Shown: one piece after another, positions 17,963-61,221 of the stretch
How the letters are laid out: every line of letters begins with the position of its first letter
How positions within the stretch are numbered: position 1 is the stretch's first letter
Assembly (NCBI RefSeq): GCF_023055435.1
Contig: NW_025963890.1
Location: forward strand, 34,472,001 to 34,536,000
Direction of reading: 5' to 3'
Source: Haliotis rufescens
Taxonomy: Eukaryota
Length of the DNA stretch: 64,000 nucleotides
Notes under the pieces: model-generated
The model's input: only the letters and a program-made list of their open reading frames with translations
What the model was told of the DNA's origin: nothing
Database searches by the model: none
Position numbers and translations under genes: made by a program

Positions 17963-18468
17963 TACGAAGGGATAACGCCGTGGAACTTTGGACTTGTGAC
18001 TATTGGCATTTGTATAAGATGTTATCTGCAACACGTAGGAAAAACAACTAGGAATCAAAAGACTGAGGAAGTTGATTGATTGAACTATAAACATGTCTGT
18101 AGAGATATGAATGAAGCGTTTTCATTTGCTGCATTTTATTCATGTAAAAATAATGCATTATATCTAAACAGAATACATTTCGCCGCTGTTAGGTTATTTC
18201 ATGATCAACGTAAGTACTTATCTTTATTTCTGATTTGCCGTCTTATTTACAATTAAACGTCTCCGGTCCATGTTCGATGAAGGTATACATGTACGGTCTT
18301 GGTCACTTGCTTATTTGTAAAATATGTCCTTGAATATCCCCTTCCAATCAATTCAATTCAGTTCAATTTATTTACTGGAAAACCAAGAAAGGGCACATTC
18401 CGCTTTCTGAGATACATATTTGGCCATTCATAGATCATTTCTTAGGGAATGTCAATAGTTCGTTGCTG

Positions 18469-38138: not shown

Positions 38139-39820
38139 ATGAATCACGTGATTTAGCATGTACATTGCGTGCTTACCTAACACTTGAATTCATCGATATC
38201 TAATCCTGTAAAACATTGAGAATGAATGTGCCATATTTTTGTCTTCTAGACTTTGGCGCTGTTCTCAGTCTTGGTAATAGCAGCACACGCAGGTAAATAT
38301 ATTATTCAACATTTTGTCCTACTGTTGTTACTTGATAAAGTAGTGAATAAAATCAATTATTATGGTATTAATATAAACTGAAAAAGTTAGGGATCATGAA
38401 TAAAAATAATTTGTAGTGAAGAGTGAGCACTCAATTTTATAAAAAAATATCACCCAAAATATTCATGATCCTTTTTTTGTATTAAGTATAGTTCAAGATA
38501 AATGTGTTCAATCTTACCATTACAGGCGTTACCAGCGTACAGAGTCTCCGCTGTGTTAGATGGGATGGTGGTCAGTGTGTGGAGTGTTACTATGGGAGGT
38601 ATGGGCGTCAGTGTGAGAGGACATGTACCAACTGCTGGACCACTGGGTGTTATAAGGATACGGGGATCTGTGAACAGTGTGTGCCGGGTAAACACGGAAG
38701 ACACTGTAGCACTAGATGTCCTGACAACTGTAGACCGGGTAGGGACGGGACTGTGAACTGTGATCGTTATAGTGGGAGATGCCAGGAGGGGTGTAGGGTA
38801 GGTTGGTGGGGAGACACGTGTAATGATCAATGTAATAGTAACTGTGAGGGTGGAGCATGCCATCAAACATCAGGTCATTGTATCGGTGACTGTAGGGCGG
38901 GATGGCATGGCCAAAGCTGTCATAAAAGATGTTCTGTTGGTTGTGTAAGTGACACATGCGCATGTATAACAGGGAAATGTCAGGACGGGTGCAAGCCTGG
39001 GTATTTTGGTGAAACGTGTGAAGAAGAATGTGATGCCAACTGTATGGATGGTGAGTGTGATATGAATGGGAGGTGCGGAGCTTGTGAAGACGGGTTTAGA
39101 GGCAACACTTGTCATGAAACATGCCCGATAAACTGCTTGATATGTGAACAAGACACGGGAAGCTGTACAAAATGTAAAATGAGATGGACTGGAATTTCCT
39201 GTACTGACAGAACAACATCAGAGACTGGCCAAAATCCCCTGATTAAATCACAAAATTCTCAAGATTCACCCATAGGTATGTGCATGTACAAATCATTAAT
39301 ATAAATGTTACAACTTAACCTTATTTATTTGCAACAGCTAGTTATTAACAATTTATTGCAAACCATATCTTATTCAATAATCTTTTACCCAATCCTATGG
39401 AGCAATTATATGTATGTGTTAGGAAAAAGCACAGATAACGTGAAGGAATCCTGTCAAATAACGACATTTGCCGTTTGCTGAAATGACAAGTGCATCTGTT
39501 ATTTATGTATACATGGTACCTTATGTCCCCCTACCCTTGTTTCAGGTGTCGGATGCGAGACAAGCTGCGGTGACGCATTGCTACTCATGGTTTCTGTTAT
39601 GGTTACTTTATTGACAAACATTGATGTTTCATATAACATTGGTATAGTAGCCAACATATTTATAGCTTATTTTCTTGCAATACAGAAGCTTTTACAATCG
39701 AATTATGACGCATGTCTAAAGAGAGCATATCATGGTTATACACTGGTTATACACATATTTGTAAATTGGCGGTTCCAAAGGCCGTCAATATCAAGTGTAC
39801 ATCCAGCACAGACCAGATAA
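38139..39820 (+). CDS. G4: EGF-like-repeat surface protein with hydrophobic anchor and extended C-terminal tail, ~358 aa; exons 38139-38147, 38250-38292, 38526-39275, 39546-39820
   Basis: MNH|TLALFSVLVIAAHA|GVTSVQSLRC, EGF repeats in ORF 38504..39304. The terminal exon is in frame with ORF 39578..39820 (LLLMVSVMVTLL...IFVNWRFQRPSISSVHPAQTR*). The first coding exon uses a weak donor (GTGATT). Confidence 0.85.
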
Positions 39821-42800
39821 ATATTGTCAACGAATATTATCAATGCTCTCATGTTTAAATTTTGCTGTAACAATTGATATCATATGATGTAATGTCTGAG
39901 TGTGTCTGATTAGATAGGCTATTAAGACAGCTTTATAGCTGCAGTGTACATGACTGTCTATGCGTGCATATGATCACCATGTCACTTGCCGCATGTTTTG
40001 TTCTGAAATGTTTTACTGTGTCAACTCTACGATACCCATCTGTGATATTTGTGATGAATGTTGTTTTCTACAATTTATAGTTTAAAGGTAGTCGTAATGT
40101 AATGTCTACTTTGATCTCATTTACACAACCATGTATGTTTTTGTGTAAGAGAAATAACAAAATGCTCAAAGCCTTATCACCGCAATGTAAAATACAAGCA
40201 ACGTTTAATATTGGGATAGCAAGTCAAGTGTGTAGGATTTCATTACTCTGAAAATAAAGATATAATTTTAAAAACACCTGGTTGAAGTCACTATTAGCTC
40301 GTAATTTCACCACCTTGAAAAGCAAGATGATTTCTGTCATTTTGTTGAATGTTGTCCAATGTGTAATCCGATTCTCAGACTGGGTGCTTTTATCTGTTTA
40401 CTGGAGTGTGTAAAATTATACTCCAAGCCAGAATGTTTTCATATTCATGTTTTGCATGTTTTGCTTGTGGCAGTTTGAAATCTAACAAAACATAATGTTT
40501 GTTCAGAAAATGGGGATTTTATACCGCTTGAATCAATCCAATATCAAATGACCGAGATAAGGAAAACATGCTGTTGTGCTTCAGTGCATTTCTGGGGACA
40601 CTTTGTTGTGTAAACATTGTGTAATATGAATGAATATATATAATATTTACTGTGTTTATTTTTTCAAATATTCCTTCATACTTATATGATGCTATACACA
40701 GTGTATGAATACTCGAACTAATGCGCATGGAAGCTGTCACACCTGGTACCAACGATTTGAATGACACTTAGTCTATATACCTATATCGTGCAACTCTAGG
40801 ATCCTGACATACCTCAGATCATCATGAAAGGCAAACACCTCTGTTCAGTCATGTCCTTGTTGTGATCATTTTGACCCTGAAAATTTGTCACTGACACTAT
40901 AACACATTATACCTCTTCATGTTGCACCTCTTTGTCTGCTAATATTTCTTTTTATGGCCAAAAATATCCATATTGCGTTTCTGTTTTTGAAGAGTATATA
41001 TGAATGGACCACTGAAATCAGTGATGACACCAGGTGTTCGCAAAAAGGGTAAGCATGCCCTGCCCTACCGGTAGCAAGCGCCAGTAATAAAATTTGCATA
41101 AAAAGTGTCTTCTGCCATGCGACGTCAGTCTGTAAACAAACCTGACAATCAAGTGATCGATGAACCAAAACATCCAGAAACACGAGAGTACCATACTGAT
41201 TTTGTTGAAACTAATAAAAACGATATGTGAATTATTAATTACGTCAGCTGTGTACAAGTGCAGACATTTTGCTGCTTATAAGTAAAGAAAAACGTTAAGA
41301 AATATGTTCGTTTTGCAACACAGTGAGCGCAGTTTTAAAGTCTCATTAAAACACTCCTCACGGCAAAGATATGTAACTTCATAGTATTTGTGCCGTCTAA
41401 GACATTTTCATTAGGCAACCAGCAAGTCCGCGTTAGGTAACCCATACCCTGAGGAGTTACCAATCCCTTTAAATGAGGTTTCAGGTTTTGAACAGGGAAA
41501 ATTCGGGGACCTGAAAGCCAACTGTCTGTCTTGTCCTGAATCTGTTCAATGAAAGTTGACCTGGACTCGGTATCACCTGTTTGGTCGGACAGGAAAGCTT
41601 TTGTCAGGCGATCATCTTGTAGTCGGACACCTCTCAGTGTGCAGTTACATATGCAGCTTATTGCCGTCCCTCCAAGGCGGGATGCATCGTGTTTTATTAA
41701 GATCACGTGAACCAATCAGATCTCATCATTCTGAGGTATGATAATTACGTATACACGTAATACATAAAGTATATACATAAATATACATAGATACGTGTAT
41801 ATGGACAAAGTAAATATATGTCGAACATGACATGAATTGATTGACGGTGATTGATAAACATAACATTTAATAATATGCATGGGACAATTTGCATATGATT
41901 GAATTAGTTTTGAATTTCGCATACACTACTTTAACCCACCCTGTCTAATTACACTACCAGAGTAAGTATTCACACACACAATACAGTGTACGTCAGTCAT
42001 GATACATATTCCAACGTGCAAGATCATAACATAGTTCAACATGATTGACATAATCTATTCACAACAGTATTACAAAGAAAATATTGAAATGTACCCACAG
42101 GTATGACATGTTCAAATAACCAAACTAATTGCATATATTTAAGATTTAAAACAGTAACACATTGTAGACATTTGCTTACCTGAGATAATAAATATTCAAC
42201 CACAGAGCGCAGATGATCGAGATTTCTGGTTAAAATTCGTAGGAAGTTTTTATTGTGAAGTTTAGTTAATTCAACTCAACAGAATTGTATAAATCGCGTT
42301 TCATCCGTCTTAGATATTGGAACGTTGTCTGTTTCTCATCTCCCGCCCCTATAAATTCACCTGAAGCTCTTTCAATTTCTAAATATATACCACATGGTAT
42401 TTGTATGACGCTATTTAAAAATATAGCCATCAATTTTCACAATTGAAATTAATTTTGAAAATCACTATCGAATGTATAGAATGAAACTCCGAAAATCTTT
42501 TAAAGGAACATGGGAATAAAACTGAATAGTAATTGACAAAACTATATAGAACTTGATCATGAATCCAATTTTGAATTAATATTGTATTCTTTTAAAATTC
42601 ACTTGATAGTAGGTCGTTTTAAAATTAATTCTGCGCACAGCCACCACTTGCAGCTTGGGTTGAGTGAGTTGATCAATTCTAGGTCCGGGCACTGGCATAC
42701 ATGCAACAGGAAGAAGATCAAATTCAGTTAAGACCGGACACTGTTTAAATACGCACGTGCCCATCGTTGCTTTCTTGAATTCCGAAGCACGCCGTGGGGA

Positions 42801-44404
42801 GTCACGAATATAGTTGGTCCAAAATACCATATTCTTGGATGAAGCGGTCAGACTCGGTGACTTGGGTTATTACGTGTCATCGCACCCCGACGACGATGGT
42901 CCTTTCTCCTAATGTCAACCTCTGGTTTGCCTGGCCCAGATTCGATTATTTGCAAAATGAATGAAAATAAATGAAATATTGTTAAACTATATTAACTCAG
43001 TCGCTCACTTTGTAAAAGCATAATTTATGACTTATTGTTTATAAATGAGTATTTTGAAGACTTTGCTCAAATAGATTGCCATAGGACTAGTGACATCACA
43101 GGAAAACCTTTCTACAGTCTAAATTGAAAGTTCTTTTATGCAATGGTAGCATGTATATCAACTATGTTGTATATGTGTGAAGTACGGGGAAATATCTGGT
43201 GCCAGACCGCATATTTTTTAGAAACTTGGTGAAAATGAATGGGGTAACAACTGTGTGATGGTGTTTGTGATATGACTGGAAGGTGCCTCTAAGCTTTATA
43301 GACGGGCAACACTTGTTACAAAAAGCTCAATTAATAGCTTGTATATATTTGTATATATGTTTAATCACTAATTTCATACCTATGGATGAGTCTTGAAGTT
43401 GTTTCTAGTGGTGGTCTTTTCAGTACAAAGAAATCCAGCCCATCTCATTGTAGTCCAGCTCCCGTGCCATATTCATACAGCAAACAGTTAATCGGCAGGT
43501 TTCATGACAAGTCTTGCCTCTAAAACCCGTCCACACAACCTTTAACTTTATAACCATGGGAAGCAACTCTGCAAAGCTAATCGCCTTAAACGACTAAGAC
43601 GCCCGTGCCCCCTACACATTAAAACCTTATACACATACAGTACGTCCGTGTGGGAACAGTGAGTGCTTATTAAGCGCAAATCCTCATTCTTATAGTTTAA
43701 ACAGATACCGTTTTTGCCAGGAGAACATAGGGCTAAACATAGTGTATTGTCTCGGCTACAAATGTACTATATTTGATAGTGCGGCAAGATCCACACAAAA
43801 CACCACGACATGTTTAACCCGGGTAACATGATGAACCTAATTGTTAGACTGTGACCCTGTTAAAAACCTGCTTAAAGAGCTTTTATTAGGTCAGTTTTTA
43901 CAAGCTCAGTGAGGTAGCGCTAAATTTCATTGAAAACAATATATAGTATGTTCAGAATAGATAGAACATAATCTTCAGTCTCCCTAAGAAAGAATGGTAA
44001 ATGGACATAAATAATGTCCCATGGTTGACAGTGTTTTGTCGGAGGGAACAATATACACACGGACACATGCTGGGCCACACGCTATTGTGATACAATAGCA
44101 GCACGTTTAAACACTATGCTTCAAAAATAGGTTGACAAAGATTGAGGTATTAAGAAACAAACCCTATCTTGCTTGAATTCCAGAAATAAAGATACAGGGT
44201 AATAGAAATGAGAAGCCATATGGTAGTTAATTATGTTGTAAGCGTAATTTCATCTCTGGTCACTAAGCTGTTAACGTTTTTATGTTCGATTTGAGCCACA
44301 CATGTCGAGTTAAATTATTGCGTTCCATCATTATCATTCCTTACACGAATGTTTTTGTTGTTGAAACTTTAATTTTGTGGTTGATTTTGGTTCTACCATT
44401 GCAG

Positions 44405-45400
44405 GTGCTTCCAAGATACACAGTCCCCACTGTGCTGAGTGTGTAGAATGTTACTCCTTGCCGTTTGTTATTCTCATGAAAATGATTCGTTATAAACTGC
44501 AAATTTCTAATTTAACTCGAGAATCGCGACTGTCGGTTTCGCAAAGCTCCATTTTTGTTACATGACCAGCGTATATTCTTTCTCTTCCAACAGCGGTCTC
44601 GGAGTTATCAAGAATATGTTTTGTTAAAATTGATTTTGTATATATTCATAATTATCCAAATGTATGATAAAGAATGTCAATGACCTCAAATATTTTTTTA
44701 TTACTTTTGGTTATATTTTGTAAGATTTTGCAAACTCGGAACTACTTTTTGAGTCGCAATTCCAAGGGTTGGTGAACAATGCGTTTTAGGTAGGGAGAAT
44801 TTACGTTTCAACGTTTGTATTTGCATTGAAAAATAATTCAGGAAGACAACTAAACATAAAGTACATAATAAATAGGATATTCCATGTGTCTCGTGACACA
44901 TTGTTACCCTCATCGACTGAGGGTTTGTATTTTTTCGAGTGATGTGATTTACTTTCAACAGTTAGTAAATAACAATTTATAGCTAAAATATATTTTTTCG
45001 ATAATGACTGTTAGGGCAGTTAGATCTATTTGCGGGGAAAACAGTGATAACGTGAAGGAATGCTTTAATATTTATACGCAGCATTTACTGAAATGCATCT
45101 AATGTTTAGATATATTGCTTTGTGTATTGGTACCTTATGTATCCCCTTCATTATTTCAGGTGTTGGGTGCAGATTTCTGTACTGATTACTGTATCCACAA
45201 ACATTGATTGTATTGATGTCGTAACTAGGTCATTTATCGCATCTGTTCTTGTAATACAGAAGGCGGTCAGCATCGGAATTACAACATATCTCTAAAGATT
45301 GCTTATCATGGTTATACACTGGTTCCTATATTTGTAAACTGGCGGTTCCAAAGGCCATCAATATCAAGTGTAAATCCAGCACAGACCAGTTACCTATTTT
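44405..45400 (+). pseudogene. Pseudogene of the EGF-repeat family lacking signal-peptide exons and nearly all of the ectodomain exon
   Basis: 44405-44455 (GASKIHSPHCAECVECY) matches the G6 exon start. ~44955-45160 matches the G4 last intron. 45160-45400 matches the G4 terminal exon with deletions and stops. ~44170-44350 matches the G4 upstream region (~37900-38090). Confidence 0.85.
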
Positions 45401-45822
45401 CAAGAACCGTAGCTAACTCAATGGTCTCTAGTTCAAATTGTGCTGTAAATATTGGAGGACAGTTGATATCCGTTCATCTAATGTTAGAGTCACTATTAGC
45501 TCGTTGCTCCACCAGCTTGAAAAGCAAGATGATTTCTGCCATTTTGTTGAATGTTGTCCAATGTGGAATCCACCCATCTCAGACTTGGCACACCAATACA
45601 CACGGGAAAGTACCCACATTAATATCATTAGGTATTATTGGTTACTGGTTTAAATCTAACCCGGTGTTTGATGTGCAGTGAACATATGTGTTCAGTAATC
45701 GTTTAAGTGTCTTTACAATAACATTTTTATGTTTAGGATTTGGCAATTTGGAATACAACACAACAGAAAGTGTGTTCAGAGAATGGCGATTATATATCTC
45801 TTAAATCAATCCTTTATCAAAT

Positions 45823-45985
45823 GGGGGCGGTTGGGTAGCCTAGTGGTTAAAGCGTTCGCTCGTCACGCCGATGACCCGTGTTCGATTCCCGACATGGGTA
45901 CAATGTGTTAAGCCCATTTCTGGTGTCCCCCGCCGTGATGTTGCTGGAATATTGCTAAAAGCGGCGTAAAACCAAACTGACCCAG
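45823..45985 (+). mobile_element. tRNA-derived SINE family B, full length
   Basis: GGGTAGCCTAGTGGTTAAAGCG (A box), GTTCGATTCC (B box), CTGGAATATTGCTAAAAGCGGCGTAAAACC; absent from the paralogous G4 flank at ~40548. Confidence 0.9.
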
Positions 45986-45986
45986 C

Positions 45987-46126
45987 CACCTTTACCACAT
46001 GACCTGGACAAGGAACACCCACCTTTACCACATGACCTGGACAAGGAACACCTGCCTTTACCACATGACCTGGACAAGGAACACCCACCTTTACCACGTG
46101 ACCTGGACAAGGAACACCTGCCTTTG
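45987..46126. repeat. 33-bp minisatellite, ~4 copies
   Basis: (CTTTACCACATGACCTGGACAAGGAACACCCAC/TGC)x4 read directly. Confidence 0.93.
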
Positions 46127-47716
46127 TACACGCTTCAGTGCATTTCAGGGGACAGCGTTGTGTAAACATTTTGTAATATGAATGCATATCTATTCTATGT
46201 ACTGTCTGAATGTTTTCAAATATTCCTCCCAAGTGGTTAGGATGTGATATGATTGAATACCCTGAATACTCGCACTCGTGTACATATATTTTAAGTGTGC
46301 ATATAAGTTGATACAGTCATTTATATCGTAAAACCATTTGATCCTGGCACAACTTAGATCTTCTTTATAGGCCAATTGGTCGGTACAGTCTTATCAACCG
46401 GATGAATTTATAGTGATAGGATAGGATAAATAATACATATTATAAACACTCCTTTCGGAAAAGAAAATTTGACATATAAATTAATAACAATTGAGTCGTC
46501 TGTGACATTTTTATTGAGCACCCATGGGGGCTTTGATTCACGGAAGGACTTTGACATATAGTAATGCTTACCCGGGGAATTACCAAACCCTTTAAGATGC
46601 GATTGCAGGTCCTTGATAAAGATCTGAACAAGGTGAATTCGGGGAACTGAAAGCCAGATCCTTCTCCAATGCAGGTTGACCTGCACTCGGTACCACCCTG
46701 GTGGTCGGACAGGAAAACTTATATCAGGCGACATCACTGCAGTGGCATTTGCAGTTTATTGTTGTGTCAGTGTCAGACAACGACGATACACCAGTTACCC
46801 TCTGTGTGAAGTGATCCTCAAATTGCGGGGTTGCTTGGGCTGGATGTCAGTGGCGAGAAGTTCATGTATAAATCCTCTGTCAGTAACTGGTGCTGCCGCA
46901 GACTGTCTATCTGCTTGAGAAATATCCTGGCGTGGCCTGTACCAGGAAGTTTAGGTACCAAGTTCTCTACATATACAATACTGGCAGGCTGTGGTTGAGG
47001 TGGCACACTGTTGATCTCGACTGACAGATCACTATCTGTGTTGATACCAGATGTATAATGGTCGTTAGATCATCGAATGGTTCGACAAAGTCGCTGGTGT
47101 TGTTGCCCGATCATGTTGTTACGTCGGGTGACTCGTCAGGGTCTTGCTGCTTGTGTTGTAATTAGTGGGTTGGTGTAGGCCGATTTTGGTTCCCCGCCAT
47201 TTTTGAACCAGAGAGATGGGGAATCAACTCATTAAGTAAAGGGAACCACTGTACACGATCAGTTTTTGTCCACTTTTTTATGTTAACAAAAGTATAAGCA
47301 ATAAAGATGTTGACTGCATATCTGTTCTCCGTGTAATAAAAATTACATATACACAGCTGAAACACTCCCATTTACACAAATAACATAATGACAACACAGC
47401 CATTTACCCAATTACACAATAACATAAATAAAAACCCAGCATCAAAATTTAAATGGTTCTTAACATTATTTGCTCATACTTGCATCATACAACATGCCTT
47501 TATCTGACGTGCCAACGTCCTATTATCATTTATACTATTCTTAACAATGAAATGATATAATCACGTGTACATAAAGTGTACATCACTTCTGTCTTTCCTT
47601 CCCCAACAACACAGCACGCCGTTAAATAAGTGAAATACTGTTCAAAGCCGCGTTATACCTATTCAAATTAGGGTCAGAATGTTATTTATCAAATACCTGC
47701 AATACCCCCATCCCAC

Positions 47717-47795
47717 CTCACACACACACACACTAACACACACACACACACACACTCTCTCTCTCTCTCTCATACACACTCACACACACACTCAC
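47717..47795. repeat. Compound (CA)n/(CT)n microsatellite
   Basis: Direct inspection. Confidence 0.95.
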
Positions 47796-49242
47796 AGGCG
47801 CGCGTTCAGTTAAAAACGGACACATGTGCCCTCCGTTGCTTTGATCAATTCCGAAGTACTCCGTGGGAATTCAAGGGTATAGAATGGGGCCGATGTAGCC
47901 TATTCTTGTCGTGAGAGGCGATTTAGACAGATCAATTGTCAGATTGAGGTAAAGTGCATTTATATGTCACACGTTACATAAGCTGTGTATGTACAAACAT
48001 TAGGCATATAATTGAAAAGTAAATTCCAGGCATTTAATGTTTATGATATACACTAAGACAGTGAAACACATATATACATAAAATATAAGAATGATACTAT
48101 TTGTATCCTGTGTAAAACAATATTGCGCATGGTATATTTCAGTCACATCGTGAGGAGAGAAGGTTCTATATTAAAAGTAAATACTCTTAGACTGTATAAA
48201 ATCTTGTCGTCGAAGGACAGTAAAATAACCAGAACATCACAGATTTTATTTATAACTAGTATGTAACCATAAAAAGATATTACTATACAGAACAATACAG
48301 ATGGCCAGCAACTGAAGGTAGATCAGCATACTGGGGACCTTGCTGCGTGCATGGACCCCAACAGGATTTACACCATCCCTTCAGTAAAGGCGATTGTACG
48401 CAGGCTTAGCCACAATTAAAATGACAAATATTCTGCGCTCCAAGTAGTAGATAAAAATGCATGGAGAGTGTCTAGACAAATTGGTTTCCAGTATTAAAAC
48501 GGGGCGTGTTTAAATATTCTTTGAATGACATGGACTTAGGATATCCCATCATGGGGACATTCATTTTACACTACTGTGATTCTGTAACACCGCTTTGAAA
48601 AACATTCAGCTCGTTAAATTCTCTTTCATTGTTGATACAGTTTGCTCTACGATTTAGGTGTTTCACCATTGAACCCACCGTGAATGGTATGGAGTAGTTG
48701 CCGGTGTCTGAAGACTCTCGTCATTCATTGCGTATTATTACTGCCAGTCACACATGTAGTGTGTGTATTTGTGCAACCAAAGTCAGAGGAGTCGTCGATA
48801 CGGTTGTCAGATATGTGTACAGTCCCGCAACTATTTGAGTATTTGTACGTAAAGTGACAGTAACTCGTCAAGTGGATATTTCATTACATTACGGATATCA
48901 TTAATTACGACTTTGCAAGGTACGTAATTTCACACAAGAAATACAGTTTCAACCTGATCTGAGGGTTGACGAACTGGTAAACACAACCTCTAGATCTGTG
49001 TCTACCTTTTTCCGGAACCCAGGTGATCATATTTCTAGAAATTGTTGATTTGTGTTGTCGTACTTCCACGATGTTGCTCTAATATCAATGACTGGTTTGT
49101 CTGGTCCAGAATCGGTTATTTGCGGGTCGCCGCTAGATAGCTAGAACATTGCTGCACGGCGGTGTTAAACAACACTCATTCATTCAAGTCATATGAAAGC
49201 AACTATGTTCCAGGTGCATGTCTCGAATGACAAGCCGTCACT

Positions 49243-51099
49243 ATGGCCCAAATTGGACGAATAACTTTAGTAAGTGGATATCTTGTTTTTATATTTGCTT
49301 CAAATGACAGGTCTATAACGGTATATGAATATTAACAACTTACCTTTATAAAATGTACTTCGTTAAATTCATTTTAGCTATAATGGATGCTAAATGTAGG
49401 ATATTTAGGCCCATTTTAGTTATTTCGAAATATTTGCAATAAGCCTTACTTAACGAATGGTCAAATGTTATAATGATGAGTAAATGAATTGTGCTTCATT
49501 TTCCCCTTTAGGGTGTTCTAGTGACAGTGGTTGGGATTGTCGTAGATACAGCAGGTGGGTATTAAGTCTGTGTTTCATAATTTCATATTTAGTATGGACA
49601 GTACTTGGATGGGTAATTAATTAACACCGAACTATGTTAATCTGCCTGGTTGGTCTCATGCTTGCTTCATCTTATAACGGGGCGATAGGGTAGCCAAGTG
49701 GTTAAAGCGTTAGCTCGTAAAGGTTCGATTCCCCACATGAGTACAATGTGTGCAGCTCATTTTTGGTGTCCCCCGCCGTGATGTTGCTGGAATTAACGGA
49801 CGTTAGACCATTACTCACTCACTCACTCACTCCATCTTCAATTTTTAGGTGCAGCTGATGTGGACATTGCAAGGTGCATGAGAGAGTCCAATGGCAACTG
49901 TCTTGAGTGTCAGTACGGATGGTATGGGCCTCAGTGTTTGAATAAATGTCGATTTTGCTCGACCACTGGATGTGATCAAACAGGGATATGTGAACAATGT
50001 CAGGCTGGTAGCTCTGGGAAATATTGTAACTCCAGTTGCCCTGATCACTGCAGACCGGCTAGAGATAGAAGTGTGAACTGTGAACGGGATACTGAGAAGT
50101 GCCAGGAAGGATGTAGGCGTGGCTGGTGGGGGGACACGTGTAACCAAGCATGTAGCACACACTGTAGGGAGGGAGCATGTCTCCAGATCAATGGGGACTG
50201 TATCGGTGATTGTGAGGATGGTTGGTGTGGAGTCCAGTGTATTACAGCATGTCCACAAGGATGTGTAAATAAAAGTTGTTCTTTCCTTGGCAAATGTTTA
50301 GATGGTTGCAGTGCTGGTCTGTGGGGAGAGGAATGTGATAAGACTTGTAGTAAGGCTACCGCAAAGTGCTTCCAGGGTAATGGCACCCGTACGGGTGAAT
50401 GTAAGGACGGATGGTACGGATTGCAATGCGATACAGTCTGTTCTGTAGGTTGCCTGACGGGGAAATGTGATGCGCGATCAGGGAGGTGCGAAGGTGGATG
50501 CAAAGTAGGTACCTATGGGGAAACATGTGAGCGTGAATGTAGCTTACAGTGTCGGGGTTCCCAGTGTGATAATAGTGGAAGGTGTGTGCAAGGTTGTGAG
50601 GCAGGGTTTCAGGGCAGCTCCTGCACAGCAGCATGTCCCTTCAACTGCCTGGCATGTGAACAAGACACAGATGTCTGCACAAAATGTAAAATAGCAACTC
50701 GTTGTCAATCAGCTCAGTCTGATATTTCAGGTTTGTATTCCTATGATTTCAAAGTACAACTGTAACATATCGTTCAGCCATGTGTATATATAATCAACAA
50801 GAGTTTTCTATAATGAGCTACGATGTGTGTTAAGCTATAAGCTATGTTCTAACAGTCGTTACATATATTTGCTTGTCTTCAAATTGAAGATGCCTTTCAA
50901 CTTCAAGAAAAGGCAATGGTGATAATAAAACTAAGATATATGCATTAATGCATAGTTTGACACTAATGATAATAACATACCTATTCTCTCCCTTTCAGGT
51001 AGCAGATGCTTCCATATTGCTACTATTTTAATCGAAGCCTCAGTGATAATCAGTTTGATCGGTGAGGTCGTACTGAATAGAAGCACATCATCAGTTTGA
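49243..51099 (+). CDS. G5: EGF-like-repeat surface protein, probable GPI anchor, ~350 aa; exons 49243-49269, 49512-49554, 49849-50730, 50999-51099
   Basis: MAQIGRITL|GVLVTVVGIVVDTA|GAADVDIARC, EGF repeats in ORF 49860..50765, tail GSRCFHIATILIEASVIISLIGEVVLNRSTSSV*. Confidence 0.86.
49679..49831 (+). mobile_element. SINE family B in G5 intron, ending just upstream of the splice acceptor
   Basis: GGGTAGCCAAGTGGTTAAAGCG..GGTTCGATTCCCCACATG..(ACTC)n. Confidence 0.85.
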
Positions 51100-52570
51100 C
51101 CAAACAGAAAGAGGTATTACATTCAAGGACTGTTTGGCAGTTGGCAGTTGGCAGTTTCACGAGGCTGTCAACATCCACAGTATCAAGGAGAAAGCAAAAT
51201 CGCTGCATTGTGTATATCTATTAAGCTTACCTACTACGTGACTGTTGATCTCGAAAGAGTGATCTGTACATAGTAACTGAACTGAAAATGTCGTTGTACA
51301 TGTCGTTTATGAGCATATCAAATTCATATCAGGTGTCCCGGTGAAGTGGTTATTCATTTCAATGAGAATGTGTACATTTACACTTTTTTTTTGTCTGTGT
51401 ATTTATTATTGTAAGTTGTAGCAGTAATAGTGTCAACAACGATCAGTTCTACATGCAAGAAGTTCCATCCGTCGTGAAAAAAACTGTTCCATGGGAATAA
51501 TTCCCCTAGAGAAATAGAGTACAAAGAAATGGTTTCACTGCAGGAATGAACAATTCTTTGACGGTAGCGCATATCAATTATGTGTATTGCACATACGGCC
51601 GAAGCCCAAATTCATATTATGCACGTTTGCACATGTTAGATGTTGGTATACCAGTTTCTGCTTTTCACAGCTACATTGAAAATATCGAAACGTCGCAGCT
51701 CGTTTAGTTAAACAGTTGACTTATCTACTGATTCATGGATAAGATATTTACTGGGTATATACTCCCTTAAAACGTTTTCTAATCGAGGGGCAAATACACA
51801 GGACATGAAACAAGTCCTCAGTGAGGTTTACAGCGGGAACACAGGCGATGGGAGTAGGGCGCCCGACATCTTTATTCATTTGACTTGCAATTCGAGTACG
51901 AACAAAACAATTTGCAAATTATACAAAAATGAGTAAGCTGTAAGATAATTGTGTTATAGTAATAGCTGTTACTATTAACTGTATATATGTATCATATGTA
52001 CATACTAGACCATTCCTTGAGGAATATATATGTTCCAGTGATGTAGTCTCGATATCAAGAAGTAAAAGTTCTGACCACCATAGCAAAGTGCGTTACATCG
52101 AACATCTCTTTTTAAAGGGCACATATTATCTTTCATATTTTTGCCTTTATGTATTCTTATTGATGAATAATTTGATTGTTTACATGTGTATACATCGTAA
52201 GTGTAGAAGAGAACAATTCAACAGTTTCACCTTTATAACTTATTGAACATTCATAGTATAATCTCTACCCATCGATATGTGCTACGTTATGTGTTATAGT
52301 CTTCTATATTTAAGACGCGAATCTACCGTTACCAATATGTATTATACTGGAAGATCTAGACGTTGTAAGATTATTGTGTCTGAATATTTTAGCTATTTTG
52401 TTCCATTCATTTTAACAACCTGTTAATAGTCAATGGAATAAATGGCAATGAATGTATATACAAAATTAAAGGTTTACTAAATGAGTGTGTATATTGTCTG
52501 TTATTGCTTCATTAAACAATTGCCTGTTGTTGTTTCAGTCAATAACAGTCCCCAACAGTCGTTTGGAGTG

Positions 52571-52720
52571 ACGGGCGATTGAGCAGCCTAGTGGTTAAAG
52601 TGTTCGCTCGTCACGCCGAAGATCCGGGTTTAATTCCCCACATGGGTACAATGTGTGAAGCCCATTTTGGGTGTCCCCCGCTGTGTTATTGCTGGAATAC
52701 TGCAAAAAGCGGCGAAAAAG
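52571..52720 (+). mobile_element. SINE family B
   Basis: GCAGCCTAGTGGTTAAAGTGTTCGCTCGTCACGCCGAAGATCCGGGTT..GCGGCG. Confidence 0.85.
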
Positions 52721-54002
52721 GTTAATAACTACGCTACGCCAACTCACGTCTTCAAATTAATTGTTTGACAAAGAGAGTGAGTCAGTGAGTTAGATTAACG
52801 CCGCTTTAAACAGTATGCTTGTAACATTCAGCACGTGAGCTTAATGTGGAAGAAAATCCCGAAGTGATGTGAGTGTGTATGTGTGCGTGCGTGCGTGCGT
52901 GCTTGCGTGCGTGAGCGTGTGTGTCAAACGTGTGTCTATACTCGGAGGGACCTCATGTACAGTAACTGAGAGTACAGTGGGGTACAGAAATAGAAGGGCA
53001 CATTTCAGTATTCTTACTCTCAAAAATAGATTAGTCTAATGATGTTGAAGCACTGTCAGAATACTGAATTTTGCCTGGCACTTCACATTGCACCTCCAAA
53101 CTGAGGTCCACGGCTGACGTAAAAGAGCTCTCATAGAAAGTGTATGATTCTTTCAAGGCAGAATGTTATAGGTAGGCCATTTCATTCAATGTTTAAAGGA
53201 CGAGCAATGATAAGAAAAAAAATTCACCCCCTGGAAATTTCACATTTACGAACGAACATATTTCTTAAACGTTTTTCTTTACTTAAATGCAGCAGAATTT
53301 CGCCAAAACATGCAAAACAAGCAGCCATATATTTTTTAGTTTCAACAAAACCAGGAAGCGCATTACTACAGGATTTTGCTGTTACTTGTTTAGAGGCCGC
53401 CGTCAACGTCGGATGGCAGAAGTACTGCTGAGGCAATAAACAAACATTTACTTTTGTATGCAAGTTGTGTGTGCGGCTGGTGCTACCGGTAGAACAGGAT
53501 CCATTCATATTATTTTCACTGCTTTTTCGCCTCTTCCTTTCAACGGAATCTGTTTCGGCGGATGATCGAGACTGATTACTATTCGGCGTTGACTTTTTGT
53601 ATTTACAGTTATTCAAACATGTGCTTTGGAAAGAAGAAATACACAAATGTGGCTACAGATACAGAGAGGTCGGTGGGGCAAAACGTAGAGTGCTTTGCGA
53701 GCAAGCAGACATTTTCCAAATGAGAAACCATTAGCTTCACACAATAAATTAAAATGTGGATAAGGTTTCGAACCTGTATATGTGGAGGACACATGGCCCA
53801 ATGCTACCCATACAGCGAGCAATCAGTATGTACCAAAGGTGGGTTGTGGGAGTCCGGCAGAAAGCTACCTGTAGGTTGATCATTTGCCATTCAAGGTGTA
53901 ACGTGAGGGTTTCCTCCCTGGAAGTTCCCCCGTTTTCGGGGCAAAGGCAGCAGACAATAATGACTTTTACACAGAAAACAACTGCGCAATGTTCATAGAG
54001 AT

Positions 54003-54256
54003 GGTGAGGTGAGGTGAAATGGGGTTTAACGTCGCGTCCAAGATTATTGCACTTATATAGCGACGTGCATGCACGTGTGTGTGTTTTGTGTGGCTGCTTG
54101 TACTAGTCCGGACTGATGCCGATTTATAGTGCTAGCTCACTGAGATACCATGCCGCAGTTTAACATGAATACCCCACCCAGACACAGTATACTGACTCCG
54201 AGCCGACCAGTCCTTGTTTTAGCCCCTGAATGCCGAGCGCCAGACAGGGTAACAAT
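54003..54256 (-). mobile_element. SINE family D
   Basis: CTGAGATACCATGCCGCAG..ACACAGTATACTGACTCCGAGCCGACCAGTCC..ATGCCGAGCGCCAG; repeated at 55847 and 57835. Confidence 0.78.
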
Positions 54257-55846
54257 CATAGAGATGGCGCAGAAACAGTTTGTCACAGCCTTTTCCAAAA
54301 GGTCCATTGGACAGTTCATCATACCACAGCGTGCAGCACCCAGACACAAAGGTGCCAGTCTCAAATAACCAAAAAAGGCGATACAGTGTCAATAATAATC
54401 CAAGTACTCAACAAGACTAAAACTTGAATGTGTTGTATTGTCAAAGGAAATGCAGGTAGGTATAATACTACGTTCAAACTGAACAATTTAAATTTTTTGT
54501 TGTTAAACAATCACTTGGTCTGGTGAGTGTAGCAAACTGTCAGAGACAGTTGACGGGCCCGTGTTGAGGACGCATCAAGTAACGTAGAGCTGGCCTACAG
54601 GTCGATAGATGACCTCAAGTCAACGGCTTAACCTTTGGTCATTTATGTAGAATCAGACAGTAGTGATTCGGAGTATGAATTTAGTGACTCATGTTTTGAG
54701 ATGACCCCTTTTCATCCCAACTGTGCTACCAGTTGATGCGCTCCCCTTTGTGTAAAGACGTTTGACACAACTATGTAAATACAGTTTTTTTAACAGCCAT
54801 TTCCTACGGACATTTCCAACAATCAAATTTAAGATGTGAGTTGATGTGAGGTATTTATTAACTATTGTGATGTCACTATTCAAATGCCACTTCTACTTTC
54901 TGTCTAAAGTTATGAATTCATCCGCGTTCCTTTGCTACAAACGGAGTGAACATGTTTGTCACGTCCTAGAGTAATAGTTTCTCTTACACAAATAATCCAT
55001 CTCCGAGAACATTTTCAAGGAATTTACAACTGTGGCAGGTTGTTTGACTCAAATGTCTGAAAACCCTCTGTGGCGACTTTCTATTCAGGCTACGAAGGTT
55101 CTGTGAAGGCCCAACTCTCGAGGAGATGTAACGTATTACTTACTAGCCTTTTATCAAATCACGTCTATAATTAACATAATTGTCCAGAGCGATACGACAC
55201 GACGTCATGAAGGAACACGACGTATGGTTTGTTAATGACCAATAAAATGTCATGGGTCCTTTGCCTTACATATCTGTGCAATAGATCATATGCCGCTGTA
55301 CGAAGTGTACTGTCCTATAGCTAGTTACTTCAAGAGACCTTACGTCAGACGCTGGTAAACCACAATATATACTTGTATACTGCAGCGGCTCGTGTTTTGA
55401 ACAAGCTATAAATTTAAATTGAAGACTGGTGGGGTGAGGTGAAATGGGGTTCAACGGCGCGTTCAAGATTGTACATTTAAATACTCTATTGACAATAACT
55501 GACGTTGCATGGCCTGCAGTGAGAAAGCATTATGCGCTAGGGTCGAGTCCGTCGAGACCGTCGTCTACACACATCGTTGCTACCGCATTACATTCAGTAC
55601 ACAAACCTAACTTGATAGCATAGATAAAGGAGTACGACAAATATATATGGATCGATTATCTGGTTTCCTTGTAAATTTCATGTTTTGCTTTGATGACCTA
55701 GGGTTAGGAATCATCATGCTATTGAATTAGTTTCACCCTTATCTTGCAAAAAAGCAACTGCAACGGCTTGATTATACATCACGCAGACATCTTCTCTACA
55801 TGAGGAAGAAGATATGCAAAGTGCATGTATATATTCTATTAGCATT

Positions 55847-56120
55847 GAGGTGAAGTAAGGTGAAATGGGGTTAAACGTCGCGTTCAATATTATTGCCCTC
55901 ATCTAGCGACGTGCATGCACGTATATGTGTGTGAGTGTGTATGTATGTGCGTGGCTGCTTGCATTTGTACTAGTCTGTTGAGATACATGGCACAGTTTAA
56001 CATGAATACCCAACACAGTATACTGACTCCGATCCAACCAGTCCTTGTTTTGGCCCCTTAATGCCGAGCGCCAGTCAGGGTAACAACAAAAACATCTTTT
56101 GATGTCTTTTGTTATCACGG
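55847..56120 (-). mobile_element. SINE family D
   Basis: Colinear with 54003-54256, including the GGTGAAATGGGGTT.AACGTCGCGT tail. Confidence 0.78.
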
Positions 56121-57634
56121 AAGCGGTTATTATTATAATTTAGACATTTGATATTTTGTTAACTGTTATCTATGGTTAATACGTTATGCATTGAATTAAA
56201 TAGTCAATTGGGATTTATTTTTGATCATGTCTTCGTACCTTTGTTCCGATTACAACGATACTGATCTAACGGACGACCAAGTTGACATGTGACACGCGTC
56301 GGATAGATATTCAGGCAACGATACATGATTTAATCACGCGGCTATATATCCGTCCTGTCAACCCGGACGTTGTAGTGTAGACAGCTGATTACAGGTGATC
56401 CTGTTTCTCGGGGAGCCCACCCCACTTGGTTGTGTCACGTGTCACATCGGAGTATACGCAGTTATTATGCCTTATCTTGCCACCACAGTTGTAAACATTA
56501 ACATTGAGGGCATCCTGGAAAAACACAAATCGTTCACGGGAATTCCAAGAAAAAGTTCTAATGCATGGCATTATATGTTTTAAGGTCTTAAAATGCGTTG
56601 TTATATGTTTGATCAACGTGAACCTACTGTGGAACTTTTCTGCATTACAAACTGTAGACAATTTATTCAGTAAATTATATCAATTATATTGTCTTCTTTG
56701 AATTATGATGATGCTGGTGTTAGTCAGATGACGTGTGGAAGATGTGGATGTGCAGATACCAGCATTTGTACAGCATGGACGTGTGACATTATCAGGTTAT
56801 AAACCTTTTACAAGGCCTCCATCATATTCAGATTATATCTTGTTACAGTTTCTTTACCTTACTTAAAGCAGATTTGAATACCTTACAGTGCATGCCCATT
56901 CAAGACTACTCATCGTATTCAAAACACAGTCCCTCTCATTGTACTGTGTACAGTACATCCACGCTGATGGGCAGGATAGACAACTAGGACGTAGATAAAC
57001 GGCTGTGACGTACATAGCTGATGTAATCATCTATATATACCCCATACCGCTGCCTGTGTATACAGTACTGTTTTAGTAGTCAGGTGTCCACCAAGGCTGT
57101 CGGTTGTTGACTGCCCGCTTCATGTGAAGTCAGGTGAGGCCACCCTCGCTGTTCTGCAACCCAAGCTCGCTGCCGTGTTCTCCTGTTCGCTGCTGGCTGC
57201 TGCATGACTTGGGTTAAGAAGATTTAACTGCAAGTATATTCTTTCAGTTTTTGCACGAGCGTTGATGGCGACTTGTTTCTTATTAGAGACATTACATATA
57301 TTGTTATTAGTCTGGCCAACTATGCATCACTTATCATGACTTTAATGATAACTTTTTCTCTCTGTAAGTCGGGCCAACTCAAAATCAGAGTGACATCCCT
57401 TTGCCATCCCAGGATCTGATGGTCGTGAATCAGATGCTTTGTCTGTCAGCATTATGAACTCGGGGGTTTCTTACCTGAGATGAGAGTACAGATGGCCAAC
57501 TCGCCTTCTTGACGTTTCTTCATCTGCTAGCTTTGGACCGAAATTTGGTCATTACGTAAAAGTTTGCTCTCATATGTTGTTTTGGCTCGTTTGTCTAAAA
57601 TGATTGACCTGTCAACAACCTCTCCACCTTTAGT

Positions 57635-57770
57635 GTGTGAGTGAGTATAGTTTTACGCCGCTTTTAGCAATATTCCAGCAATATCACGGCGGTTGACACC
57701 GGAAAATTGGCTTCACACATTGTACCTATGTGGGGAATCGAACCCGTGACGAGCCAACGCTTTTAACCGC
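57635..57770 (-). mobile_element. SINE family B
   Basis: (GTGA)n-TATAGTTTTACGCCGCTTTTAGCAATATTCCAGC..GGGGAATCGAACCC. Confidence 0.82.
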
Positions 57771-57834
57771 TATGTCTTCTCCACCTTTAACGCCGCGTGT
57801 ACGTATCCGGACTAATGCAGACTTCAAAGTTCTA

Positions 57835-58042
57835 GTTAACTGAGATACCATGCCGCAGAATAGCAGAAGCTCGGACACAGTATACTCCGAGTCCAGTCCT
57901 CTGTTGAGCTCCTAAATACCGAGCGCCAGTCAGGGAACAACAAGTACCATCTTTCAATGTCTGTTGGTATGACGCGACGGGATCGAATCACCAACTTTCC
58001 GCTTTCCGGGCACACGCTCGATCTACTTGACCACGGAGGCGG
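57835..58042 (-). mobile_element. SINE family D with tRNA-like head
   Basis: Family D core plus GGGATCGAATCACC (rc B box) and TCTACTTGACCACGG (rc A box). Confidence 0.72.
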
Positions 58043-58316
58043 CACTTTCAGCTTTTGAGAAGAGGAAACGTGTTGTATTCGGGCGACAGAAAATATTATA
58101 ATTTTTTTATATCTCTCCAATTTGTAATTAAAATCTCCACAATTGACATTATATATGGAGCGTTGCATATATAGAATGATATCCCCTTGATATGTCTTAG
58201 TTTTAAGGCATTTATGACGTATCGCTACCCTTCCCTCGATATGATGATATTGTAATTACCCCGTGTTGTTTCAGAATCAAGGATACTGAGGGTTAACTGA
58301 AAGAGACACCACCACC

Positions 58317-60630
58317 ATGACACGGCTTCATCATATGCCACTAAAACATCTAGTAAGTAATAACAACCGTTTTAATGTCAAATATGCCAACGATGATTAT
58401 AAGCACCAATGCAGAGACCTGAGTGTTGTAGTGTATCAGTAATGCGTCTATGTTACAGTTACAGGTGATTCCTACACAGCTATATGAAATTGGTAAAAGA
58501 AATGCCTCAAGTCTTTGTTTCTTCCTAGTGTTTGATGCTGACCATGTACGCTGGACCAGCAACAGTCGCAGGTAATTATGTGTGTTATCATACTTCTTAG
58601 AAAATGAACTACTCTGGAAAAGTTTTAGTTCTAGCCTTCATACAGTGTTATAATACCACGTATATCTCAACAGTACTGATGGGCATGGGTGGCCATGTGG
58701 TCTGGGTTGTCGAACTTGGCTGCGCTGGACATGGCAGCGTCCCAGTCACCGTGTGAGGATCCGCTGATTGAGGTTTCGCATCTCTGGTTCTCATTGGTTA
58801 GCATCACCATGAGTTTCACCAAAGTGGAACATATGTTTTAAGTTTTGAACGTCCTACAATTAAGCTAACAAAGTAAACTAACATACACAATTATTTGTGC
58901 TGTTTATTTTGCTATCATTTTAACTGGCGCCACATTGCAAAGTTTGAACAATATATTATATCGTTCTGATTTATCCCATTTCATGGATACGGGGGTTTTT
59001 GAACTACACATGACCCAGTGTGCTCGACGGCAATATGACAACTGTGTGGATGGTTACCAGGTGGGGAGGGGTGGTGGGGAGAGACGTGTAACAGAACTGT
59101 GAAGTCAGAACATGTTATCAAGGCACCGGTAATTGCATTGGTAACTGTAAAGCGAGATGGCACGGCCAGCGTCGTAGGAAAATATGTTCACATATGTTCC
59201 TTAATAAAATTGGTGAAACTATGTAAATTAGCATGGTATTAATATAGTTCAAGATACCAAAAATAATTTGTGAATTGATCTTGATCTTACCATTACAGGT
59301 GCTTCCAAGATACACAGTCCCAACTGTGCGAGGTGGCATAGTGGTCAATGTGTGGAATGTTACTACAGGTGGTTTGGACCTCAGTGTGAGAGAAAGTGTG
59401 ACAGGAACTGCTGGACCACTGGGTGTTATAAGGGTACAGGAATCTGTGAACAGTGTGTGCCGGGTAGATACGGAAGACACTGTAACACAAGATGTCCTGA
59501 CAACTGTAGATCGGGTAGAGACGGGACTGTGAACTGTGATCGGGGTGGCGGGAGATGCCAGGAGGAGTGTAAGGAAGGTTGGTGGGGAGACACGTGTAGC
59601 AAGCGATGTAATAGTAACTGTGAGGGTGGAGCATGCCATCAAACATCAGGTCATTGTATCAGTGACTGCACACATGGCTGGCACGGACTGCTCTGTGACA
59701 AACGGTGTTCAGTTGGGTGTCGTGGAAACCGCTGCAGTTGTGTGACAGGGGTATGTACGCATGGGTGTGAGAAAGGCTGGTTAGGTGAAACATGTGAAGA
59801 GCAAGAACAGCGAAGAGAATGTAGTGCCACGTGTAAAACGCATGAGTGTGATACGAATGGGAGGTGTTTGAAAGGATGTATAAATGGATTCAGAGGCAGC
59901 TCCTGTAACGAAACATGTCCGGTGAATTGCCACATTTGTCAACAAGACACAACGTCATGCACGAGATGCGAACACGGATGGCAGGGACCTATCTGTACCA
60001 GCAGAACTATCACACATCATCATCATCGCCCGTCCAAAAAGGAACCGATATTCGACTCACTTGATTCCCCATCTGTACCAAAAGGTATGTGTATCAGAAC
60101 CAATAGTGAAGCAGCCAGTCTAATCAAAATGAATGTTTCGGTCCAACTGCTTAACAAATGGATCCATCAAATTATTGTACTTTAATGGACCATTGGACAT
60201 TGAAGTTGTTTAGCTGAGGAATATATCCTGGTTAGTTGAATTCAATATATTGATGATGTATGTTCCTGTAACATAGAAATGAAAACCAAAGACGAAGAAT
60301 AATGCCTTTGCTTGTTAATGTTTTGGTATCATTCTCTTCCTTTCAGGTAGGGCGAACAGCAGGAATAATGGCAACGTGTTGCTGGTCTTGGTAGCTGTGA
60401 TTATCAGTGCGATGGGTCACATTGATCTGTCATGTTATGCCTATGAAACAGTCCGAATACAAGGAACCGTACGATACATCTTACAAAAGTTACGGCTACA
60501 CGTAAAACGGTTGTGTGTGAAGATTGCACGCCATGAGTGTACACTAGTTCATGCGTTTGTAAATTGGCGGTTTCAAAGGCCGTCAATATCAGATTGTATG
60601 TCCAGTGGTACGGTAATATTCTCACCGTAG
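58317..60630 (+). CDS. G6: EGF-like-repeat surface protein with hydrophobic anchor and extended tail, ~382 aa; exons 58317-58352, 58529-58571, 59299-60084, 60347-60630
   Basis: Kozak-like ACCACCATG, MTRLHHMPLKHL|CLMLTMYAGPATVA|GASKIHSPNC, EGF repeats in ORF 59352..60185. The terminal exon is in frame with ORF 60376..60630 (VLLVLVAVIISAM...AFVNWRFQRPSISDC..*). Confidence 0.85.
58980..59190 (+). pseudogene. Decayed EGF-repeat pseudo-exon inside G6 intron 2
   Basis: Translates in pieces as EGWWGETCNRT / CEVRTCYQGTGNCIGNCKARWHGQRRRKICS, paralogous to G4 GWWGDTC..CEGGACHQTSGHCIGDCRAGWHGQSCHKRCS; frameshifted and missing cysteines. Confidence 0.8.
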
Positions 60631-61221
60631 TTTGTTCTCACATGATGCTTCAATATCACCTGCATCGAATGCAATCTTTTATGCTAACTGAAAACATGAT
60701 TGAATTTCTATCGTTAGATTTCTTAACTATTTACAACCCAAACATCGAGTTGGTCTCACATTTAAGAATGTGTCAAGGGAAAGTAACTCCAACATACTTC
60801 ACCGTCATAGTGACATTTGGTTTCATCATCTTTTACATTCTTCATACCATTACTTCGAGAACGTATCAACTCAAGCTCAAGTGTGTTGACCATAGAATAG
60901 AAACATAGGAACTGATTGGCCGTCAAAAGTGGTATTTCTTATGATGACAAATGTGCACCATGAACAAAGTAAAAATATTCATTTGTTTATTGTTTTCATT
61001 AGAACTACGTGTGGGAGAATGAGGATTCGCCTGATTGGTCTCCTGATTTGGCAACTGTTGTACAAAGAAATAATGTGCTGTCAAGCATTGAGAATCTGTT
61101 TAATCCTGGACACTGAAAGTCCAGATGTATATGATTTTAAATAAAAAGATATTTTTTTAAAACATGATGAAGTTGGTTTTATGCTGTCCTGGCTTGTACA
61201 TGTACAGATTCGATTACATGT

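Follow-up and report, generated by a model that had tools for sequence, protein, structure and literature searches.

Three EGF-repeat receptor genes of the abalone Haliotis rufescens, here called G4, G5 and G6, carry in the last exon of their messages a predicted stem-loop of about 38 nucleotides (nt), built of two helices, that folding and covariance models suggest is likely to have been kept by selection on RNA structure. The genes lie in a 64,000-nt stretch of the 1.33-Gb genome (NW_025963890.1, 34472001-34536000), referred to below as the window, and positions are given relative to it. Taken together, the resemblance of the three hairpins exceeds chance. The explanation that we favour, with a confidence somewhat better than even, is that the structure is a docking site, probably for an RNA-binding protein, that would tune the stability or translation of the message. 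The analysis itself shows the position of the element in spliced mRNA, its predicted sense-strand fold, the compensated changes within it and its narrow distribution.

Each of the five hairpin sequences put forward in the original prediction, those of G4, G5, G6, a pseudogene and a further gene, G3, is present where it was placed (Table 1). Below the upper stem, a lower helix set off by a small internal loop (3x2 in G4 and G6, 2x2 in G5; UAA/AU or CA/AU) extends the predicted fold to ~38 nt. Three G.U pairs are identical in G4, G5 and G6, which had been read as pointing to RNA of the plus strand, and folding bears this out: the plus strand folds (z -3.75, -4.09 and -2.30) and the minus strand does not (z -0.92, -0.69 and -0.08), these scores having been computed on windows picked around the hairpin, for which shuffled exons are the fairer control. 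With 150 nt of flank included, pair probabilities are high for G4, G5 and G6, ~0.55 for the pseudogene and zero for G3. RNAalifold applied to G4, G5 and G6 yields 17 pairs, 3 of them with a double change. The two double substitutions reported for G5, A-U to G-C and G-C to A-U, and the one extra base in its loop are all real. That extra base had been credited with breaking the G5 reading frame; G5 is in fact out of the G4/G6 frame on both sides of the loop, so the insertion alone does not account for the break, and the spacing between the G5 stop codon (51097-51099) and the stem is 47 nt rather than the 48 nt given previously.

We trained a covariance model on G4, G6 and the pseudogene, leaving G5 out, and used it to search 374 kb on both strands. 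G5 was the top match outside the training set (25.7 bits, E 0.015, a rough value), with the next match at E 0.25; it lies in the right exon and on the right strand, and its E value is 0.0026 when the search is the window. A sequence-only model built from the same three rows gave no G5 match at E<=10 and nothing beyond its training rows. The chance that the four substitutions in the G5 stem would make two compensated pairs is 0.001-0.004. Read in the G4/G6 frame, all four fall at second codon positions and all are replacements (N>S, R>Q, P>L and I>T), and no change is seen at any of 7 degenerate third positions within the stem or immediately beyond it, compared with 41-46% in the EGF exon (the count becomes 2 of 9 once the loop and the last flanking codon are included). 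What the spliced contigs, the model and the compensated pairs support is a sense-strand structure under selection that belongs to the mature mRNA and is protein-coding in two of the genes (G4, G6) but non-coding in the third (G5); the accompanying claim that the family shares it does not hold, as only 3 of the 32 paralogs examined carry it, besides the pseudogene and a doubtful copy in G3.

Several observations weigh against selection on structure and have to be set beside these results. By sequence alone the G5 match is weak, being equalled by 10 of 300 shuffles against G6 and by 219 of 300 against G4. The covariation rests wholly on this one divergent copy; the double changes, at 3 of 15 pairs, are a raw count over four sequences, uncorrected for phylogeny, and four rows are too few for a phylogeny-aware test, a shuffle result of 3/500 not being a probability. 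If the basal pair is discounted as the possible product of a tandem 7-mer, the chance of the compensated pairs becomes 0.02-0.04, and a looser test, in which all pairs are kept, gives 0.02-0.20. Equally stable 26-nt hairpins occur in 4, 3 and 1 of 40 shuffled 400-nt exons. The changes in the pseudogene are what protein-level selection would leave, and they constitute, in that copy only, a small instance (two synonymous, stem-breaking changes) of the free synonymous variation that the original prediction had regarded as damaging to itself; they are equally compatible with neutral decay. An element of the 3' untranslated region (UTR) type placed in coding sequence would be unwound by ribosomes. 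The remaining points on this side concern the peptide that the element encodes in G4 and G6.

Another way to view the conservation is as that of a protein motif: FVNWRFQRPSIS, at the end of the cytoplasmic tail, would be what selection keeps, the hairpin would be incidental, and G5 would have lost its tail and drifted while keeping its pairing by luck. The 12 residues are invariant across G4, G6 and proteins of two other species, H. rubra (P0002) and H. cracherodii (P0001), within tails that are 37-61% identical around them, and in each of three lineages (G4, G6 and H. rubra) the reading frame has stayed open and in register. Modest evidence suggests that the tail is translated, and that the tail or its end motif matters as protein. 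Both pseudogene changes are synonymous. Between G4 and G6, 35 of the 36 nt in these codons are identical, the lone difference being synonymous and at the loop-closing pair; the resulting count of 1 changed codon in 11 degenerate ones is low relative to the rest of the exon (P 0.02) and not significantly so relative to the EGF exon (P 0.20), and the other two species were compared as proteins, which hides their synonymous sites. Under neutral substitution alone the path between G4 and G6 would stay open with P 0.13, and a search of the kind that yielded the H. rubra protein favours open tails.

A protein motif accounts poorly, however, for a G5 stem with four replacement changes and zero synonymous ones, and it leaves the two compensated pairs to the small chance given above. 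Short tails are usual among the relatives, which makes G5 look ancestral rather than truncated, and a search of 1.84 billion representative proteins did not find the motif beyond these genes. Run against the same set, a tail profile picked up nothing else except one spurious repeat (P0006 was rejected as a tail relative, its score being a spurious sum of repeats), and protein searches with the 60-residue tail found no relative outside Haliotis. The middle of the tail is 42% identical between G4 and G6, and because its changes are spread evenly over the codon positions (23, 23 and 22 of 39) its residues look unconstrained. The conserved island measures 38 nt, its limits coincide with those of the lower helix, and the flanks on either side are at most ~50% alike; the first residue difference beyond the block, S/D, involves two changes, both of which keep lower-helix pairs. 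We therefore consider a protein motif with an incidental hairpin unlikely. Selection could also be absent altogether, a chance hairpin having been passed on as the genes duplicated, with short gene-conversion tracts keeping the copies alike. The G4 and G6 EGF exons do contain patches without synonymous differences, and such a history would suit both the weak similarity of G5 by sequence alone and the frequency of equally stable 26-mers in shuffled exons (1-4 of 40). Conversion within this genome cannot reach H. rubra, however, where the peptide is invariant too; nor would it be expected to leave a 38-nt island that stops at the end of the fold, and it does not produce compensated pairs. We rate this history as quite improbable.

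Two further alternatives keep a function for the element and change its nature. As a recoding signal, a protein-bound hairpin 40-50 nt after a leaky UGA would promote read-through, turning a lipid-anchored receptor into a membrane-spanning, tailed one, with G4 and G6 having fixed the long form by stop loss. UGA is the stop codon in both genes whose stop precedes the element (UGA-C in G5, UGA-U in G3), and the frame past it stays open for 57 codons in G5 (51100-51270) and 38 codons in G3 (17963-18076; P 0.05 and 0.11, noticed post hoc), while in two neighbours whose element has decayed it closes after 6-7 codons, and every carrier has a frame through the hairpin. Known 3' read-through stems, however, begin 7-12 nt after the stop as described in PMC3159437, compared with 39-47 nt here, and conservation of the element is best in G4 and G6, where no stop is left to be read through. 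No peptide is common to the G5 extension and the G4/G6 tails, the homology of G3 is doubtful, and another short-tailed paralog lacking the element also has a 35-codon open extension; read-through thus seems very unlikely to us. The same low credence goes to an imperfect inverted repeat in DNA that a dimeric transcription factor would bind, symmetrical variation at the tolerant positions then mimicking compensation. The arms do form an inverted repeat, the changed positions mirror each other, and similar short words are common in the genome. All three asymmetric positions, however, give G.U in the sense orientation and C.A in the antisense one, the spacer length differs by one base, each copy is part of a mature mRNA in its sense orientation, and variation in the lower helix is pairing-compatible as well.

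If, as we favour, the element is a stem-loop kept for its RNA structure, its reader would recognise the stem (the fixed sequence, the three fixed G.U pairs and the flanking AUC) and not the loop, because the loop differs in every copy (CCAAA, CAA, CACG) while the stem is fixed. A stem-reading protein is proposed since the stem sequence and G.U pairs are fixed, the loop is free, and coding and UTR positions are both tolerated; a double-stranded-RNA-binding protein of the Staufen kind would be a candidate, as would a groove reader of G.U pairs. The Roquin and Regnase proteins, suggested earlier, are unlikely readers given the variable loop. Lying within 50 nt of the stop codon, on either side, the element would act between ribosome passes or at termination, and the output tuned by its reader could be stability, translation or localisation. 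Localisation signals that work from coding sequence or from a UTR are found in yeast ASH1 and fly gurken.

The element may have started in the 3' UTR of a short-tailed receptor, probably anchored by glycosylphosphatidylinositol (GPI), a state that G5 would still keep. The ancestor of G4 and G6 would then have lost its stop codon, so that former UTR came to encode a 60-residue tail and the element to spell FVNWRFQRPSIS as well; the invariance of that peptide would be largely a by-product of RNA constraint, possibly with some later role as protein. G1, G3, G5 and two neighbours outside the window end 23-32 residues into their last exon, with a hydrophobic stretch and no tail, which by eye gives these short ends the look of GPI signals. 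In a tree that left out three broken paralogs, G4, G6 and the H. rubra protein, with 83-93 residues, form a clade (96/87), which G5 joins weakly (80/0). The simplest path that we infer from the sequences runs from a UTR element to stop loss in the G4/G6 ancestor. Some 24 kb past the window, the 3' UTR of the L006 paralog (EGF exon 87024-88049) preserves, ~90 nt beyond the stop codon, a run of 13 nt that matches the G5 3' arm exactly; a remnant stem of 5 bp is left at 88432-88460 (window-relative), with a G.U changed to A-U. In the sister paralog of L006 (82824-83789), a look-alike has decayed further. The L006 remnant hints that the element predates the G4-G6 group and decays in some branches.

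As predicted, the pseudogene copy has two stem-breaking changes, both of which make C.A mismatches. Aligned with G4 over 292 nt, the pseudogene shows ~81% identity and gaps that shift the frame; two of the differences fall in the 38 nt. G3 had been offered as a weaker candidate, and it remains a doubtful, possibly diverged copy: its alignment is gapless, with 13 of 22 arm bases identical and 8 consecutive pairs, but its z score is -0.13, the fold does not survive in wider context and the model fails to find it. Alignments as good as that of G3 number 13 in 748,000 nt, four of them being G3-G6.

The narrow distribution of the element was examined by several routes. Over 264 kb, a covariance model (R1) recovered only the four copies on which it was trained; a further 164 kb, which took in 9 paralogs from the second cluster described below, yielded no copy. 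Outside these stretches, distant copies of different sequence could have been missed. The best stray model match (L057) is not near any paralog. DNA and peptide searches of the genome returned only G4, G6 and the pseudogene, and metagenome scans gave 0 matches. The exact pattern matches 3 times genome-wide, with 0 in the control, and three looser patterns gave 24 strand-matches against 10 in the control, 2 against 4, and 25 against 1. Of the 25, 12 belong to one unrelated repeat family and 3 are the abalone receptor copies themselves. Among the 14 and 22 loci that looser patterns found outside these genes, none has an EGF exon within 1.5 kb, and their scores reach at most 19.7 and 14.5 bits even though they were preselected by a similar pattern. 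We rejected a transposon terminal hairpin, or a remnant of a miniature inverted-repeat transposable element, as the source, given the 3 exact matches genome-wide and looser matches with unrelated flanks and low model scores.

Table 1. Positions of the stem-loop copies and of the exons that carry them, in window coordinates.
Feature	Position	Strand	Remarks
G3 copy (doubtful)	18002..18026	+	8 bp; 39 nt after UGA 17960-17962
G4 EGF-repeat exon	38526..39275	+	GT..AG joints in 4 of 4 runs
G4 terminal exon	39546..40618	+	90-residue tail; stop TAA 39818-39820; 3' UTR covered to at least 40618
G4 full 38-nt element	39758..39795	+	lower helix, 3x2 internal loop, upper stem; encodes FVNWRFQRPSIS; 3 of 38 nt differ from G6
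G4 upper stem-loop	39765..39789	+	10 bp; loop CCAAA; coding, 28 nt before stop; pair probabilities 0.71-1.00
Pseudogene copy	45338..45362	+	in scrambled G4-like pseudogene; C.A mismatches at 45339 and 45357, both synonymous in the WRFQRP frame; z -0.35
G5 EGF-repeat exon	49849..50730	+	from sequence and spliced contig
G5 terminal exon	50999..52222	+	32-residue hydrophobic tail; stop TGA 51097-51099; 3' UTR covered to 52222
TTGGCAG 7-mer, three tandem copies	51134..51154	+	third copy is the 5' arm of the G5 stem
G5 full element	51140..51178	+	3-bp lower helix, 2x2 internal loop; z -3.74
G5 upper stem-loop	51147..51172	+	11 bp; loop CACG; 3' UTR, 47 nt after UGA; two compensated pairs
G6 EGF-repeat exon	59299..60084	+	from sequence and spliced contigs
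G6 terminal exon	60347..61100	+	93-residue tail; stop TAG 60628-60630; 3' UTR covered to ~61100
G6 full 38-nt element	60556..60593	+	lower helix, 3x2 internal loop, upper stem
G6 upper stem-loop	60563..60587	+	11 bp; loop CAA; coding, 40 nt before stop

The window holds six single-exon arrays of EGF-like repeats, which belong to a cluster of 23 such exons in 374 kb. Products of G4 and G6 match Haliotis proteins (P0003, P0004) named, by automatic annotation, scavenger receptor class F-like, and from their sequences the hosts are likely to be EGF-repeat (SCARF-like) cell-surface receptor genes, probably of an immune type. Pfam gave only weak, below-cut-off EGF-type matches, in 2 of the 7 exons. 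The G4 and G6 tails (39546-39820 and 60347-60630; 90-93 residues) resemble former 3' UTR gained by stop loss. A second, young cluster on the same contig, at 8.6-8.95 Mb (8.64-8.96 Mb for L044-L052), has at least 9 EGF-exon paralogs followed by transmembrane exons; the hairpin was not found in the stretches fetched for these (~4.6 kb downstream of each, beyond which true 3' ends may lie).

Transcripts were represented by contigs from public runs, taken as RNA because of their GT..AG joints, no run being recorded as RNA. G4 contigs skip the GT..AG intron in all four runs, the G6 joint is present in all three contig runs, and G5 has one spliced contig of 2382 nt across three exons in one of the four runs (X10); a second run has G5 pieces that are not joined. 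The hairpin accordingly lies in the last exon of spliced transcripts, in coding sequence in G4 and G6 and in the 3' UTR in G5, at 0.5-1.05 kb from the covered 3' end. The six runs compared gave no variant within the hairpins, which does not by itself prove invariance, and in microRNA sequencing 0 reads from one run were placed on G6, a placement that gives no test of a precursor microRNA. None of the 4 runs covered the pseudogene bin (45215-45695), which tells neither for nor against its transcription. No G5 ortholog or G5 protein was found among 33 candidate proteins.

By eye, 49193-49213 and 49512-49554 are plausible signal-peptide exons of G5. A second perfect stem, of 8 bp, starts directly after the G5 stop codon (51100-51138); with a regional z of -1.1 it was set aside. 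The G4-like pseudogene spans 43198-46227, its EGF exon in pieces, one of them inverted, and a short repeat inserted in its UTR. Run X16 has a second, allele-like contig at 39813-39915, with 8 differences, starting just downstream of the G4 hairpin, and the G6 EGF exon has patches like this contig at 59622-59838; the two could reflect a hybrid allele or an unassembled paralog. Elsewhere in the window, decayed Tc1/mariner-like transposase copies were recognised by eye at 895-2210, 8773-10226, 24049-25000 and 30587-31679, the first two mutually inverted around G1. Tandem arrays of 15-nt and 37-nt units lie at 26134-27382 and 63173-63990 (the 15-nt array is open in several frames), a perfect 77-nt inverted repeat with a 32-nt spacer at 34948-35133, a fragment resembling a non-long-terminal-repeat retrotransposon frame, by eye, at 22603-23202 on the minus strand, and a tRNA-like short interspersed repeat at 45824-45978, which with its related copies has very high contig depth in RNA-like runs. 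A dispersed G+C-rich repeat of at least 1.3 kb, its copies 77-92% alike, has long proline-rich open frames (L065, L066, L068, L070, L071, L074, L075, L080, L082, L085, L086, L087).

The significance of the element, if selection on RNA structure is the right explanation, is that it would be a clear example of protein overprinting a UTR element once the stop codon is gone, in which an invariant peptide 'motif' is the shadow of an RNA constraint and thus a caution for motif hunting. The genes also offer a natural experiment, in which one fold can be followed in three settings, a UTR, coding sequence and a pseudogene where it is decaying, with compensated variants ready to hand. If read-through were instead the truth, this would be a recoding element of new layout, caught giving rise to a cytoplasmic tail, its RNA signal having become an invariant peptide in the branch that lost the stop. 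The reach of the finding is narrow, at three genes in one genus. Cis-acting mRNA structures appear to be little described for molluscs, with none for abalone among the top-ranked literature matches, and in the literature searched, mostly open papers and abstracts, we found no description of this element, which we regard as a lineage-restricted, cis-acting mRNA stem-loop.

Comparison with known RNA elements upholds the earlier judgement, made by eye, that neither the iron-responsive element (IRE) nor the selenocysteine insertion sequence (SECIS) fits. Rfam gave 0 matches at gathering score in the window, and with Rfam 15 (histone stem-loop, precursor microRNAs and others) the 9 sub-threshold matches in three 3-kb loci include none over the hairpins. 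An IRE has a bulged C under a 5-bp upper helix and a six-nucleotide loop (PMC8466369), whereas the abalone stem is unbroken over 10-11 bp, with loops of 3-5 nt. A SECIS has a core of tandem G.A pairs at the base of helix 2, formed by 5' AUGA and 3' GA (PMC2761289). The abalone element shares with it the order of helix, internal loop and 10-11 bp helix, an A-rich apical loop in G4 and G6 and, in G5, an upstream UGA; it lacks the AUGA/GA core, however, and its internal loop is UAA/AU or CA/AU. Of the AAA/G feature in the apical region of a SECIS, AAA occurs in G4 and G6 and not in G5.

Elements read through their loops also differ from it. The constitutive decay element (CDE) bound by Roquin is described in PMC6294493 as a triloop, YRN and best YAU, on a stem of at least 6 bp of free sequence in a 3' UTR, and Regnase-1 targets are described in PMC7407380 as having a pyrimidine-purine-pyrimidine loop. 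The abalone element is likewise a short last-exon stem-loop in a likely immune-type gene, but its stem sequence is fixed and its loop has 3, 4 or 5 nt. Only the CAA of G6 is a triloop, in contrast to CCAAA in G4 and CACG in G5; none of the three fits the Regnase-1 loop; and only G5 has the 3' UTR position, at 47 nt where Regnase-1 sites lie at least 20 nt downstream of the stop, the G4 and G6 copies being in coding sequence upstream of theirs. The LIN41/TRIM71 response element (LRE) has a triloop closed by U-A with a purine at position III, larger loops being unbound (PMC5908797); the corresponding pair has a probability of 0.52 in G6 and 0.0 in G4 and is absent from G5, so the set fails. G6 alone thus fits relaxed CDE and LRE loop rules, and G4, G5 and G6 as a set fit none. 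Read-through stems resemble the 10-12 bp stem of G5, downstream of UGA-C with an open frame beyond, and differ in spacer (47 nt in G5, 39 nt in G3) and in that the abalone stem is kept in genes without an upstream stop; no slippery heptamer was seen by eye before the stem. Staufen sites are duplexes of 5-14 bp with little loop specificity (PMC7407380), a range that takes in the predicted 10-11 bp duplex, although this is a feature of low information. Those sites lack a precise sequence, and the decay that they bring about needs a 3' UTR position, whereas in the abalone element both the sequence and the positions of the G.U pairs are fixed.

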